IMG/VR virus record: IMGVR_UViG_3300033149_004116
Coordinates: 36,023-100,022 of that record
Origin: a virus
DNA: 64,000 nucleotides
Strand: one strand, 5' to 3'
Each line of letters starts with the position of its first letter. The first letter of the stretch is position 1. A model generated the notes under the pieces. That model had not been told where the DNA came from. It ran no database searches and saw only the letters and a list, made by a program, of their open reading frames with translations. Position numbers and translations under genes: made by a program. Of this stretch, positions 26,292 to 53,076 are shown piece after piece.

Positions 26292-26542
26292 GACTTATCG
26301 CCCCATTTGTTTTTCCTCACCAATAACATTTTCAAACAATTGGCTAAGTCTTCCATTGCAGGTCTTTGATATTCCGTCACCAATTCGTATTCCTCAAAAT
26401 ATTTTTTGAAGTCCTCGTCATTCACATCATCAGGAAAGAGATCAAGCAAAAACGTCAACGATAAAACGTCAACTTTTGATTGCATGAAGACCATCGTTAT
26501 GTCAATCAAATCTGACATTTTCACACTTACTTCTCTACTCAA
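26288..26542 (-). CDS. Hypothetical protein
   Basis: In-operon ORF. Confidence 0.45.
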   Translation of the reverse strand: MSREVSVKMSDLIDITMVFMQSKVDVLSLTFLLDLFPDDVNDEDFKKYFEEYELVTEYQRPAMEDLANCLKMLLVRKNKWGDKS

Positions 26543-27734
26543 TACGATCCCTCAAATATTCGTCAAATTGTTTAACAATAATGTTTATATCATATACTTC
26601 TCTCGCTCTTTTTACTCCTCTCTCGGACATTGCCTTCTTCTCGTCTGGATTTTCTATCAACCATTTCATTTGTTCATAAGCATGATCAACATCGGCTAAT
26701 GCTCTATCAACTCCCGCGCTTCCAGTTTCAAACGTTTCAACCTTGACGGGGAGTCCACAAGTCCAATTCCCAAGTATTTCTTTCGAAGTTGTATATGTCG
26801 TTGCAACGTTAGCACAGCCACACGAGAGAGATTCGGTTAAAGTTAGCCCCCACCCCTCCCCGCCAGTTAAGTAACAAAATATATCTATACAGTTATAGAC
26901 CTCCGCTAATGTTTCCTCAGAAACTCCATACATAAAATTTGCCATCATATCGGGCGAGGGGAATATAACATCTTTCCCTTCCTGCAAGCCAAATCTCTTG
27001 ACTATAAAAGATAAATCCCATCCCTCCTTGTCAACTTTATCCATCCATAGAAGAAGAACAGTATTTGGATAATCTTTATGAAGTTTGACGAATGATTTGA
27101 TAGTTCTGGGGATTTTCTTTCGAGTTTGGTTTCGATCCACCCGTCCAATTACAATTTTGGATGGGGGTATTCCAAGTTTCTGTCTCATTTCTCCAATAGT
27201 TTGCTCATCCAAAGGTTTAAAGATATTTGTCTTGACTCCATGAGGAATTTGATCGGTTTGTATTCCCTCCGCTTTAATCAAGTCCGCGCCGTATTTTGAA
27301 ATACACACCTTATAATCCACTCTTTTCAATATCTCTTTTATTTGATCTGTTACTGGATATCCATCGATAGGAAACCAATACAACCAAGGGACGGGAATCT
27401 CTGTTTTATATAAATAAGAGATCATCCAGAAATCAGCAAGCGTTATCAGAACATCTGGATTTTCCTTTGGAAGCCAATATTTGATTGCTCTCTCCCCGAA
27501 TCTGTCTCCATAAATATTTGGAAGAATCCTATAACCCAAGACATCCTTATGAAAGGAGGCAACCATTTCCTGACCAAAGGATTGCCATCCTATGTGAGCA
27601 ACATCATGTCCAACTTTATGAAGATATGTATCCAAATTTCTTAATGCAGTTCCAAAGCCAGATATGGTGTGTGATGATTGGTGTCCAAGAAGGGGATTCC
27701 TTACTTAGATATCACCCATCGTTAATATCTTCAT
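26535..27734 (-). CDS. GT4 glycosyltransferase in two exons (27711-27734 and 26535-27677) separated by a 33-nt BHB intron; 388 aa after splicing
   Basis: AAGGTGA SD and ATG at 27734 give MKILTMGD. Removing 27678-27710 joins it in frame to SSHTISGFGTALRNLDTYLHKVGHDV, restoring a typical GT4 N-terminus. RNQTRK and GEGWGL..E motifs downstream. Confidence 0.88.
27678..27710 (-). other. Archaeal bulge-helix-bulge micro-intron in an mRNA
   Basis: Minus strand GATG-GGTG-AT^A-TCTAAG..CTTGGA-CACC-AA^T-CATC: outer helix GATG/CATC, 4-bp central helix GGTG/CACC, 3-nt bulges ATA and AAT, inner helix TCTAAG/CTTGGA. Contains an in-frame TAA. Confidence 0.85.
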
Positions 27735-28522
27735 TTTTTCACCTTATCCCTCCTATATTGTCTTCTATTCCAATATCCCTTTTCTTTTAATTTCATATAT
27801 TTTTTCCACTTCCTCTCTCCATATATTGTAGCATCATTATATATCCAATCTAGTAGTTTTCTTGCTTCTCTAGTTGCATATTTTATTTTATAAACACCTA
27901 TTTGTTTGTGACACGTTTTCAATCTTAATCCCAACAATTTGTTTATCATCGCTGAAATCCACGTTAAAAATTCTTTAGTTCCTATAATTTCTACTATCGT
28001 CCTATTTTGAACGTCATAAACTCCACCATCCCCATCAAAAACTCCTCGAAAGAAGTGCTTAAACATATTATTTGGAACGTCAATAATTCCTTGAGTTGAT
28101 GTTTTTCTCGGATGGACTCCTAGTTTTTCTAAGTCCTTATACATTTTAACGCTACCAATAGACAAGCGATAATAGAAATCTCCTAGTGTGTTTTTTGATT
28201 GTTTTGCATATTTTATCGGATGTTCTGAATCCATAGCCTTCCTTATTTTTTCTAAAATGTCTTTGTCAACAATATTTATTTGAATTTTTCGTCCCTCAAC
28301 TAAACATCCATCTGCTACTATAAATCCCAAACAATAGTAAGTGGACTCGGAAGACTTTTTAAAGAAGTCTTCATTTATAGCATATTTTCTATTATGGTGT
28401 GTCATTAACATACTATTTGTTTTAGTCTTATATAAATGTTTCCTTATCCACGTTTCTTGTTGAGTCAAAACGTTTCGAGAAGAGTTATCTTGCGAACTAT
28501 CACCAAGGGTTAAAATCTTCAT
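27731..28522 (-). mobile_element. Two-motif LAGLIDADG homing endonuclease, free-standing, beginning with a copy of the GT exon 1
   Basis: YCLGFIVADG and FFRGVFDGDG motifs; N-terminus MKILTLGDSSQ versus GT MKILTMGDSSH. Confidence 0.9.
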
Positions 28523-28575
28523 GTATTTTCTTATAATTAAAAGGAGAACTTATATAAAAAGATATTGGTTTTTAA

Positions 28576-29319: not shown

Positions 29320-29904
29320 TTATGATATGTCTTCAATCGGAGTTTCAATATAAATTTTATAAAAGTTCTTGGGGGGAGCAAAATTGTGTTCTCTCGCCTC
29401 AGTTGCAATATGCCGAGCTATAGCGGGCATAGTTATCCTTTTATCGCTCCAATTTTCTATTCCTACTTGATCTAGAGCGTGTTGTAATGCTCGCATAATT
29501 CGTTCTTTGGGCATAGGAGGATATTGAGGTCTAACCTCCTTTCTAGGAAGTCTGGGAAGTTTTGGAAGATCGATCTTCTCTTTCGCAAATATCTGATGTT
29601 TATAATTTTTTAGAACTACTCCTTCCCTTCGATGGCGACGACACCAAGTTAACGATTTCTGAATTCGTTCATTTAATTCTTCTAATGATGCTGGTATAAA
29701 TCTATCAATAACTCTGACTATAGGTATTTTAAATTGATATGCTCTTTGATATACATACTCGTATGGTAAAAATCTTTCAGCATTTACGTCATATATGTCG
29801 AAAATTATCCAATGAATATTTGAAATTGCTGATTCTATTCTAGTTGGCGATCCGCTTCTTTTTTTAATGTGATAACTTCCACATTTAGGACATTTTATTG
29901 TCAT
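29320..29904 (-). CDS. ATP-dependent RNA ligase, C-terminal half of a split gene
   Basis: IFDIYD (motif IIIa), REGVVLK (IV) and FAKEK (V); begins with CPKC. Confidence 0.75.
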   Translation of the reverse strand: MTIKCPKCGSYHIKKRSGSPTRIESAISNIHWIIFDIYDVNAERFLPYEYVYQRAYQFKIPIVRVIDRFIPASLEELNERIQKSLTWCRRHRREGVVLKNYKHQIFAKEKIDLPKLPRLPRKEVRPQYPPMPKERIMRALQHALDQVGIENWSDKRITMPAIARHIATEAREHNFAPPKNFYKIYIETPIEDIS

Positions 29905-30464
29905 TTTTTCTTAATTCTCCATTTTCATATCTTTTTATCCATTGACAATTCATACATAATACTTGATATCCCTCTGGATAATTATTATCTTGTAACCAGC
30001 GATAAAAATGTCTTCCACCTTTTCTATTTTTTCCAAATAACTCTCTTCTATGATCTCCACCGCCTCCCTTGATATGATCTATTGAAAGAGTTCTTATATC
30101 GCTCATACCACATTGACGACAAACAGGTGTTGAGAGATGGGAATAATGAGATAAAACTTCATATTTTATTTTCTGACTCCATATCTTACTTCTTTCGTTG
30201 CTTGCCTTTATTAGTTTTATTCTGTTTTTCTCATAATACTCCTTTTGTTTTTGTCTTATTTTATCTTTATTCTCTTCTCTATATTTTTTATTATATATCC
30301 TCCTCCTCTCTCTGTTCTTGATATAATATTCATGTTTATATTTTTTTATACATTCTTTACACTCAGTTCGTCTATTCTTTTTTTCCCCTTTCTTTTCTTT
30401 CATAAAAATCTGAAACGGGTTTAATTTGATGACATATTCGACATTCGCGGAGTTCCATAATCAT
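29885..30464 (-). mobile_element. HNH homing endonuclease inserted in the RNA ligase gene; frameshift at a G4A7 run near 30378-30388
   Basis: N-part MIMELRECRICHQIKPVSDFY (from 30464) continues in the +1 frame as RTECKEC..CRQCG..LSIDHI..YQVLCMNCQ; own TATA box near 30485. Confidence 0.8.
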
Positions 30465-30502
30465 TATAGGTTCACTTCTAAAATATAAAGGTTTTGTTCA
30501 AC

Positions 30503-30838
30503 TCACCATTTATATCTACAATCTTTACATATGAAACGACCTTTCTTAAGCAACTCGCCATATAAAATGAATTTATTATCATAATTTAATTCATTCTTTA
30601 ATAATTCAATTGCTCTGGAATATTCTGGGGTTGATCTCAATCGAGCCCGAATGCTCTTATCAGCTTCTTTCATTCTCCTACTAGAGATTTGGGGGATTTC
30701 GTCCTCATCAAACCAAATTGATGTATTTTCTCCGTCGCGCTTAACAGTAAAAAGAACAACCTTTCCTAATAATTCTCTCCCCTCATTTCTCAATCTTTTA
30801 ACTGGTTCTAAATCGGGATATTTTTTCCAAATAGACAT
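30503..30838 (-). CDS. ATP-dependent RNA ligase, N-terminal half of a split gene
   Basis: KYP, TVKRDGEN (motif I KxDG), SSRR (Ia) and ILYGEL (III); ends with FICKDCRYKW. Confidence 0.78.
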   Translation of the reverse strand: MSIWKKYPDLEPVKRLRNEGRELLGKVVLFTVKRDGENTSIWFDEDEIPQISSRRMKEADKSIRARLRSTPEYSRAIELLKNELNYDNKFILYGELLKKGRFICKDCRYKW

Positions 30839-49095: not shown

Positions 49096-49153
49096 ATTAT
49101 TCGTCCCGTCCTAAACTTATAAAAAGCAATCTTATATTTAAGGATTGTGGTTG

Positions 49154-49287
49154 AACCACAAATGTCGCGTGGGCGAACCAAGAGGGGGTATCAGGAGAAT
49201 GCTCCTCTGGCGACAAACCCCTATCACGCAAGACGATAACCCCACACCGTCTCCGCTTGGCTATTGTCCCATTTCGCGTTTGTGGTT
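49154..49287 (-). ncRNA. BHB-flanked structured RNA precursor; predicted excised product 49164-49272 (109 nt)
   Basis: Minus strand AACCACAAA-CGCG-AA^A-TGGG...CCCA-CGCG-AC^A-TTTGTGGTT is a canonical BHB. GC-rich and intergenic, with a TATA box near 49311-49320. Confidence 0.75.
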
Positions 49288-49353
49288 ATCAATTCTAATT
49301 GAAGAAATTCTTATATAAAAACTTTTTCCTTTCAATTTTTTATGATACATAAA

Positions 49354-51855: not shown

Positions 51856-52145
51856 ATTTTATAATAACGAAACCTTCATATATAAGGATTTTGATTTTTC
51901 CGCCTGACCCAAAAAATCTTATCCTTTCAATTAAAAAATAATATAATACCTCGAACTCTTTAGATTTAATTTTAATATTTAATTTTAATTGATCCGTAAC
52001 ATTTAAATATGCGAATTTTTATATATTATATAGTATATGCTCGCGCGTAGGTAGTTGAAACCATAATAATCCTTCTTACTATTATTCCTATAGGAATATT
52101 TTAAATGAAGTTTTTAAATCCTCCCTAATTTCTGCTCTTATAAAA

Positions 52146-52713: not shown

Positions 52714-53076
52714 ATGGGAAACATTCTTAGAAAACCTTACGCGAGGCAACTATCAAGATTCGTTCATAAGTTCTCTGGAAGTGGATGTCTTAATGCATCA
52801 TCTACAGTAGATCAGGTGATTACTTATCCAAGAACGGGATATGACTATGCTTGGCTGAGAACTGATCTTTCATTCACGGCGACAGATTCAAGGCTTGTGG
52901 AGCTATACATCTCTGGTTCTCGGCAGAATAAGATTTATTCCAATACTGAATCTGGTAACGATCTCATATTGCTCGGAGGATGGGAATACACCATCAATAG
53001 ATACGATCTTGTCAGACTCAAAGTTGGTGCAGCATCGGGATACGTTCATTATAAAATATTCACAGAGGAAATATAA
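52714..53076 (+). CDS. Putative virion protein
   Basis: Beta-rich; late-type promoter near 52650; precedes the fibre gene. Confidence 0.5.
   Translation: MGNILRKPYARQLSRFVHKFSGSGCLNASSTVDQVITYPRTGYDYAWLRTDLSFTATDSRLVELYISGSRQNKIYSNTESGNDLILLGGWEYTINRYDLVRLKVGAASGYVHYKIFTEEI

Follow-up and report, generated by a model that had tools for sequence, protein, structure and literature searches.

Some BHB (bulge-helix-bulge) introns of archaeal ribosomal RNA (rRNA) and transfer RNA (tRNA) genes encode LAGLIDADG endonucleases, such as I-DmoI and I-PorI. Within protein-coding sequence, a short BHB intron removed by the tRNA splicing endonuclease (EndA) has been described in the cbf5 pre-mRNA of Crenarchaeota (Watanabe 2002; Yokobori 2009, PMC2738675); this transcript and the 5' untranslated region (5' UTR) of Haloferax HVO_1309 were the only mRNA substrates of the enzyme known in 2020 (PMC7714728). 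In this work, we describe a 33-nt insert, at positions 27678-27710, in a viral glycosyltransferase gene of the GT4 family, contained in a 64,000-nt stretch of DNA (the window), which is the right-hand 64 kb of the 100,022-bp IMG/VR record IMGVR_UViG_3300033149_004116. We hold with good confidence, on the grounds of sequence comparison, that this insert is an archaeal BHB intron lying in the GT4 coding sequence, and one half of a selfish endonuclease cassette. An initial annotation, made from the letters of the sequence, had already read the insert as an intron, and this part of it is supported here; it missed that the intron appears to be one half of a homing-endonuclease cassette. Its statement that no viral example had been described agrees with our literature searches, which found none for viral coding genes, only cbf5 and the HVO_1309 5' UTR.

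Like the window insert, the cbf5 intron is short, lies in a protein-coding sequence and has been gained and lost among relatives (PMC2738675). However, cbf5 is a cellular gene for which no homing endonuclease has been reported, whereas the window features a viral gene, with the intron located 24 nt after the start codon and accompanied by a LAGLIDADG endonuclease and a duplicated 5' exon. With the archaeal rRNA and tRNA introns the putative cassette shares the union of a BHB intron and a LAGLIDADG endonuclease in one mobile unit, spliced by host EndA (PMC3984707 for the association). In those introns the open reading frame (ORF) of the endonuclease lies inside the intron and the interrupted gene encodes a stable RNA; in the window, in contrast, the 33-nt intron is ORF-less, the endonuclease lies outside and upstream of it, running from the target's start codon, and the target is protein-coding. 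The T4 MobA/gene 60 system (10.1101/2022.08.31.505936) is alike in having an endonuclease within the ORF, a replacement coding segment and a short non-coding insert in which a stop codon and a hairpin are present; its 50-nt insert protects the carrier DNA from MobA, and is skipped during expression. T4 relies, however, on ribosomal bypassing, an HNH endonuclease and a bacterial host, while the window insert is shaped like an EndA substrate and its removal is expected at the RNA level. Finally, in the collaborative homing described for F-CphI and the cyanophage psbA gene (PMC3984707, PMC6083498), a free-standing endonuclease likewise stands beside a gene with an ORF-less intron at the presumed cleavage site; there the intron is a self-splicing ribozyme and no duplication of the 5' exon has been described, whereas the window carries a BHB intron.

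The interrupted gene is composed of the following elements, with positions counted in the window:

27739..27745, minus strand: Shine-Dalgarno sequence AAGGTGA, separated by 4 nt from the ATG of the glycosyltransferase
27711..27734, minus strand: glycosyltransferase exon 1, MKILTMGD, with the ATG at 27734-27732
27678..27710, minus strand: putative BHB mini-intron, 33 nt, with an in-frame TAA at 27705-27707
26535..27677, minus strand: glycosyltransferase exon 2, from SSHTISGFG to the stop codon (PF00534, 1e-13)
27673..27720, minus strand: complete BHB motif in the minimum-free-energy fold

The Shine-Dalgarno sequence, the ATG at 27734 and the octapeptide MKILTMGD, all recognized on the minus strand by the initial annotation, are borne out by the sequence. 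A stop codon had been placed directly after MKILTMGD: the TAA is there (27707-27705), but an additional codon, ATC for isoleucine, which had gone unmentioned, stands before it. Across the 11-codon insert, the N-terminus read from ATG 27734 shares its frame with the called ORF, 26535-27635, a 366-aa reading frame whose TTG start at 27635 gives the truncated database protein P0001; a truncated call of this kind had been foreseen. Excision of exactly 27678-27710 yields, as proposed, MKILTMGD-SSHTISGFG, colinear and gapless when compared with more than 30 homologues. Exons 1 and 2 together encode a 388-aa GT4/GT-B enzyme, the assignment being based on the match to Glycos_transf_1 (PF00534) and on the two-Rossmann fold of a homologue model (pLDDT 90). 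The predicted junction of the spliced RNA is GGUGAU followed by UCAUCACAC, and the predicted peptide of the spliced protein is ILTMGDSSHTISGFGTALR. In a proteome-wide tblastn against two related viruses, G001 and G002, the glycosyltransferase TAA was the only stop found within a genuine viral gene. No second copy of the 33-nt intron was found in any DNA fetched, and an exact 33-mer search of viral contigs gave no match.

The boundaries of the insert are defined by the homologues of the gene. Thirty-five were found in the databases, the best of which (P0002) is 73% identical and aligns over the full length; both these proteins and those encoded by related viral contigs begin with MKI..[GS]DS.HTISGFG, and not at the downstream TTG. 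The initial annotation had anticipated a precise 33-nt gap in an alignment of homologues, and a clean 33-column gap is indeed present in 4 homologous genes in the DNA alignment. In the related viral loci fetched with this gene, no insert is present at this place. In the AlphaFold model of P0002 (pLDDT 90), strand beta-1 spans residues 2-7 and helix alpha-1 residues 15-29; by this model, exon 1 supplies the beta-1 strand of the N-terminal Rossmann domain. Among the database homologues, P0027 contains a true intein with a LAGLIDADG domain, located between TDYT and TCQEI, and the glycosyltransferase family is thus targeted by three kinds of selfish element. Two further homologues are irregular: P0024 has an odd N-terminus, and the copy at L007:2477-3470, split over three frames, is by appearance a decaying one.

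The canonical BHB drawn by the initial annotation is exactly the minimum-free-energy structure found by RNAfold. The outer helix pairs 27720-27717 with 27676-27673 (GATG/CATC), the central helix 27716-27713 with 27683-27680 (GGTG/CACC), the inner helix 27709-27704 with 27689-27684 (TCTAAG/CTTGGA, with one G-U pair), and the apical stem 27702-27699 with 27693-27690 (AAGG/CCTT). The two bulges, ATA at 27712-27710 and AAT at 27679-27677, lie each 3' of a central-helix strand. The insert has the strict hBHBh' geometry, namely a 4-bp helix between two 3-nt bulges on opposite strands, with an outer helix on one side and an inner helix on the other. The bulges are placed as in pre-tRNA, whose residues 32-35 are paired to intron positions -6 to -3. 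The region 27660-27730 folds at -17.9 kcal/mol (z -2.8), with equally stable structures in 1 of 200 shuffled sequences, and the inner and central helices are formed with pair probability 0.9-1.0 in contexts of up to 521 nt. Loose BHB matches are, on the other hand, abundant in this AT-rich genome, amounting to 540 in about 2.8e7 position pairs; the count of BHBs made of Watson-Crick pairs only equals the simulated expectation, and a loose genome-wide search for BHBs joining ORFs returned noise only. Since BHB-like shapes are common in the genome, the shape alone is no evidence, and position becomes the decisive test: the chance of a BHB lying in register with the insert boundaries defined by the homologues is about 2e-5 (540/2.8e7).

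Inserts at the same codon junction were found in a second clade of this glycosyltransferase family. The database protein P0023 is truncated at its N-terminus like the window protein, and contigs of its clade, obtained by metagenome scan and closest to G002, contain the following elements:

L113:2438-2467: putative 30-nt BHB intron, between D8 and S9 of the glycosyltransferase
L116:57-86: putative 30-nt BHB intron, between D8 and S9 of the glycosyltransferase
L114:353-383: putative 31-nt BHB intron, between D8 and S9, frame-shifting

These inserts differ in sequence from the window intron; all three fold as strict BHBs, with cut sites coincident with the insert boundaries. At the same junction, the glycosyltransferase is uninterrupted in L115 (about 71% identical) and in G002 (85% identical). 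The 31-nt insert of L114 shifts the frame, so that only its exact removal yields the protein. Between L113 and L114, exon 2 shows 92 synonymous and 7 non-synonymous differences (dS 0.60, dN/dS 0.014), which indicates strong purifying selection on the gene that bears the intron. Moreover, exon 2 begins with TCAT in all intron-bearing alleles, versus none of 54 distinct intron-less homologues. At the start of exon 2 this tetranucleotide contributes to the second bulge and to the outer helix, and, by this comparison, the exon flanks of the intron-bearing alleles are adapted to the latter. No endonuclease gene was found within 2.4 kb upstream of the introns of this clade. The initial annotation had suggested that related viral genomes be scanned for BHB motifs, and more were found, namely those of L113, L116 and L114, one in a tail-tube gene of G002 and those in tRNAs of G001, the latter two described below.

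In the window, the intron is preceded by the elements that would form the other half of the cassette:

28551..28558, minus strand: TATA-like box TTTATATA, located 36 nt before the ATG of the endonuclease
28493..28522, minus strand: copy A of the glycosyltransferase 5' end, MKILTLGDSS, intron-less, fused in frame to the endonuclease
27731..28522, minus strand: ORF of a LAGLIDADG homing endonuclease, 263 aa (PF14528, 7.5e-6; phrog_4645, 1.2e-49)

The endonuclease contains two LAGLIDADG motifs in one chain, LGFIVADG and FRGVFDGDGG, and its TGA overlaps the ATG of the glycosyltransferase (ATGA). The TATA-like box is the probable archaeal promoter of a transcript containing both genes. Copy A extends 6 nt beyond the intron insertion site and, in a search for duplicate starts, was identical to the second copy, B, at 13 of 15 nt. 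A large BHB linking copy A (28499) to exon 2 was considered as well and rejected, its outer and inner helices being unpaired. A single-protein search of viral contigs with the endonuclease gave no match, and its nearest relatives in the databases are just 36-38% identical.

A covariance model of the L113-clade introns matches G002 at L103:4906-4957 (18 bits, E 0.016-0.08), where a second cassette is located within a different gene:

L103:4078-4960: putative cassette of an endonuclease and a 31-nt BHB intron, in G002 (contig IMGVR_UViG_3300033141_005269, with direct terminal repeats)
L103:4078-4869: LAGLIDADG endonuclease of G002, 263 aa (phrog_4645, 3.4e-47)

The G002 endonuclease is 32% identical to that of the window (blastp E 4e-38) and starts with MSVAKRAW, the N-terminus of a tail-tube-like protein (PF18906), whose homologues start with MSVAKRHWEGH in G000 and MSVAKRTWEGH in G001. 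On its 3' side follow a Shine-Dalgarno sequence (GAGGTGA), exon 1 (MSVAK), a frame-shifting insert of 31 nt and exon 2 (RAWEGHIKK...). The insert folds as a BHB with central helix GCCA/TGGT, bulges AAT and TAA and inner helix GAGCTT/AAGCTC; its outer helix has 2 bp in strict register, and a longer helix closes the structure. Cutting this BHB restores a protein of 121 aa, which aligns colinearly with its homologues in G000 and G001. The endonuclease ORF opens, in both cassettes, with the first 8-10 codons of the target, reaching 6-9 nt past the intron site, and downstream of the endonuclease stands a second, intact copy of the 5' exon, into which the intron is inserted. Only these two passed, among 80 endonuclease-homologue loci screened for a duplicated start and a BHB. 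The window and G002 introns are also laid out alike, with 1 nt, a helix of 5-6 bp, a bulged T, a 4-bp stem, a loop of 3-5 nt, the 4-nt central strand and 2 nt. When four introns are compared, 50 of the 52 anchored pair cells hold standard pairs, and both sides change at 11 of 13 positions, as in a structure preserved by compensatory substitutions; the counts were made by a script anchored only on the cut sites defined by the homologues, MAFFT being unable to align the divergent introns by structure.

The virus encodes genes typical of tailed viruses, such as those for a portal protein, the large terminase subunit, a tape-measure protein and a B-family DNA polymerase. No EndA or RtcB gene was found in the virus records, so splicing must fall to the host. 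G001 is the closest relative fetched, with 34 ORFs in common (49% mean identity); its 21 tRNA genes include the following:

G001:30258-30426 (L099/L100): tRNA-Thr, with a 94-nt intron at 37/38, strict BHB
G001:40854-41041 (L099/L100): tRNA-Met, with a 99-nt intron at 37/38, looser BHB

The BHB of the tRNA-Thr gene features outer helix CGTCTCC/GGAGATG, central helix CTTG/CAAG, bulges TAG and ATA and inner helix CGG/CCG; that of tRNA-Met is weaker, its inner helix being just 1 bp. After splicing in silico, both are called as normal tRNAs, and at the intron-bearing tRNA genes no group I intron was matched by Rfam. The 166-nt tRNA-Ser gene of G001 also contains an insertion, not resolvable into a BHB. 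Since tRNAs with BHB introns would be useless without an archaeal splicing endonuclease, this virus lineage should infect archaea. The best matches of the B-family DNA polymerase among cultured viruses are found in haloarchaeal tailed viruses. Genome-wide, boxes of the TTTAWATA type are most frequent 26-40 nt before an ATG, a distance in keeping with archaeal promoters whose leaders are very short, and a TATA-type box is located 22 nt before the virus's own tRNA-His, in the stretch G000:29139-29170 upstream of it; sigma-70-like sites, in the endonuclease/glycosyltransferase region, are at chance level only. The BHB-intron tRNAs of the relative, the promoter spacing and the affinity of the polymerase point to an archaeal host. 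Cellular matches of the glycosyltransferase are mixed, coming from DPANN archaea and bacterial metagenome-assembled genomes, and do not pinpoint the host.

The coincidence of the insert boundaries with the BHB cut sites, the archaeal lineage of the virus, and the recurrence in a second clade and in a tail-tube gene support the notion that real splicing takes place. In the mechanism we propose, endonuclease and glycosyltransferase would be co-transcribed from the TATA box upstream of the endonuclease, in a transcript computed to fold into a strict BHB. Host EndA would then cut after the second base of each bulge, i.e. between 27711 and 27710 and between 27678 and 27677, and host RtcB would join GAU to UCA and circularise the 33-mer. 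Ribosomes starting at the Shine-Dalgarno sequence and ATG 27734 would produce the 388-aa enzyme from the spliced RNA, and MKILTMGDI only from the unspliced one. The virus thus very probably needs the tRNA-splicing enzymes of its host to make the glycosyltransferase. As for the cassette, the LAGLIDADG endonuclease would have taken over the promoter, the start codon and the first ten codons of the target gene, bringing with it a new Shine-Dalgarno sequence, a replacement 5' exon and the intron, so that the target gene would still be made. By analogy, the intron most likely splits the putative recognition sequence of the endonuclease, shielding the carrier genome, and alleles without the intron, when met in co-infecting relatives, would be cleaved and converted; we infer both the cleavage specificity and the mobility of the cassette in this way. 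We lean, if only modestly, towards a wider view, according to which tailed archaeal viruses carry a self-contained mobile cassette, made of an endonuclease placed on the target's promoter and start, a replacement 5' exon and an ORF-less, target-masking BHB intron of 30-33 nt, which is erased by host tRNA-splicing enzymes, the whole moving between co-infecting viruses and between genes, such as those for the glycosyltransferase and the tail tube.

Some observations weigh against an intron and a cassette of this kind. The exact intron and endonuclease are confined to one genome. The outer helix of the window BHB is just 4 bp long, with a pair probability of about 0.4. The same covariance model that detected the G002 intron gives the window intron only 9 bits (E about 7), so that the introns may lack a common ancestor. 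Finally, the closest cultured relatives of the endonuclease belong to group I introns of Firmicutes phages.

The alternative which survives best, although an unlikely one, is that the insert is an endonuclease scar or a random insertion, and the gene a young pseudogene, in which the BHB is fortuitous, or inherited but unused. The insert does hold an in-frame stop, the cassette, unique to one genome, is probably recent, several other GT4 genes lie nearby in the virus and may be redundant with this one, and the relative L007 has a frameshifted copy of the gene. A BHB exactly at the insert boundaries would, however, occur by chance at about 2e-5, and the same architecture recurs both in the sister clade, at a dN/dS of 0.014, and in a tail-tube gene, which is hardly dispensable for a tailed virus. 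In addition, the remaining ORF is intact and 73% identical, over the full length, to the nearest homologue, and the TCAT flank is shared by all intron-bearing alleles and absent from the 54 intron-less ones.

Handling of the insert at the translational level, either by ribosome hopping of the phage T4 gene 60 type or by read-through of the TAA, which would add 11 residues, seems very improbable. The layout, with a stop right after a possible take-off codon, a hairpin behind it and an adjoining homing endonuclease, is that of T4 MobA/gene 60 (10.1101/2022.08.31.505936), and the length of the insert is a multiple of three. Nevertheless, downstream there are only two ATC codons (27678-27676 and 27675-27673), both out of frame and leading to an early stop, and no GAT. 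Read-through would have to occur at TAA, the most frequent stop codon of the genome (36 of 71 long ORFs), and the 31-nt sister introns shift the frame, so that neither process can be the general mechanism. We know of no translational bypassing in archaea. To a similar degree, we doubt that the true product is the N-terminally truncated protein starting at TTG 27635, with the upstream sequence serving as leader only. This is the start chosen by gene callers (P0001); in the light of the homologue model, however, such a protein would be devoid of strand beta-1, of the conserved DS.HTISGFG loop and of half of helix alpha-1, residues kept in all homologues, and a Shine-Dalgarno sequence and an ATG do stand before eight conserved codons. 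Least probable of all is an endonuclease residing in a self-splicing group I intron, or an interruption consisting of an intein, as is usual for LAGLIDADG enzymes of phages: notwithstanding the intron-encoded nearest cultured relatives of the endonuclease (such as I-MsaII, in Staphylococcus and Bacillus phages) and the true intein found at another site in the homologue P0027, the window has no Rfam match to group I introns, the endonuclease ORF leaves only about 55 nt of the interval free, too little for a ribozyme core, no U/omega-G pair of splice sites restores the frame, the 11-codon insert contains a TAA and no Hint domain, and no group I intron has been reported from an archaeal genome (PMC3984707).

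Other interrupted or BHB-containing loci were encountered in the same genomes. An RNA ligase gene (PF09414; window 29320-30838, minus strand) is split into an N-terminal half, at about 30838-30506, and a C-terminal half, at 29904-29320, by about 685 nt containing an HNH-like ORF (29885-30403). It was the only split gene in the proteome-wide tblastn against G001 and G002, its G002 homologue being uninterrupted, and no convincing BHB was found at the boundaries of the HNH insertion. At window 49164-49272 (minus strand; flanks 49135-49330), the strongest BHB of the genome encloses a GC-rich intergenic RNA (58% GC, compared with 33% for the flanks); this BHB has a 9-bp outer helix, central helix CGCG/CGCG, bulges AAA and ACA and inner helix TGGG/CCCA. 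Nothing comparable appeared in 15 simulations, and a TATA box is located about 24 nt upstream; processing of this RNA would yield a 109-nt circle. Rfam gave no match for it, and BLAST in the relatives matched the promoter region only, revealing no counterpart. Two strong, GC-rich and non-coding BHBs, with 14 and 19 Watson-Crick pairs, are found in G002 at 52016-52130 and 52721-53034 (minus strand, in L105); ARAGORN detected no tRNA at either position, and these motifs may be unusual or permuted RNA genes.

In published work, protein-spliced BHB introns within coding sequences rest on one cellular gene, cbf5. To this, the reading proposed here would add three separate occurrences at two gene sites in one archaeal virus group, two of them coupled to a homing endonuclease in the same architecture. 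The cassette represents a testable mechanism of invasion, the archaeal counterpart of T4 MobA/gene 60 and of collaborative homing, and, if true, would provide a concrete route for BHB introns into protein-coding genes. Genes interrupted in this way are systematically truncated by gene callers. If this reading is true, host EndA and RtcB would be required for expressing both structural and glycosylation genes of these viruses, and would be needed for mRNAs as well as tRNAs, a dependence which could bear on host range and on the conflict between virus and host.

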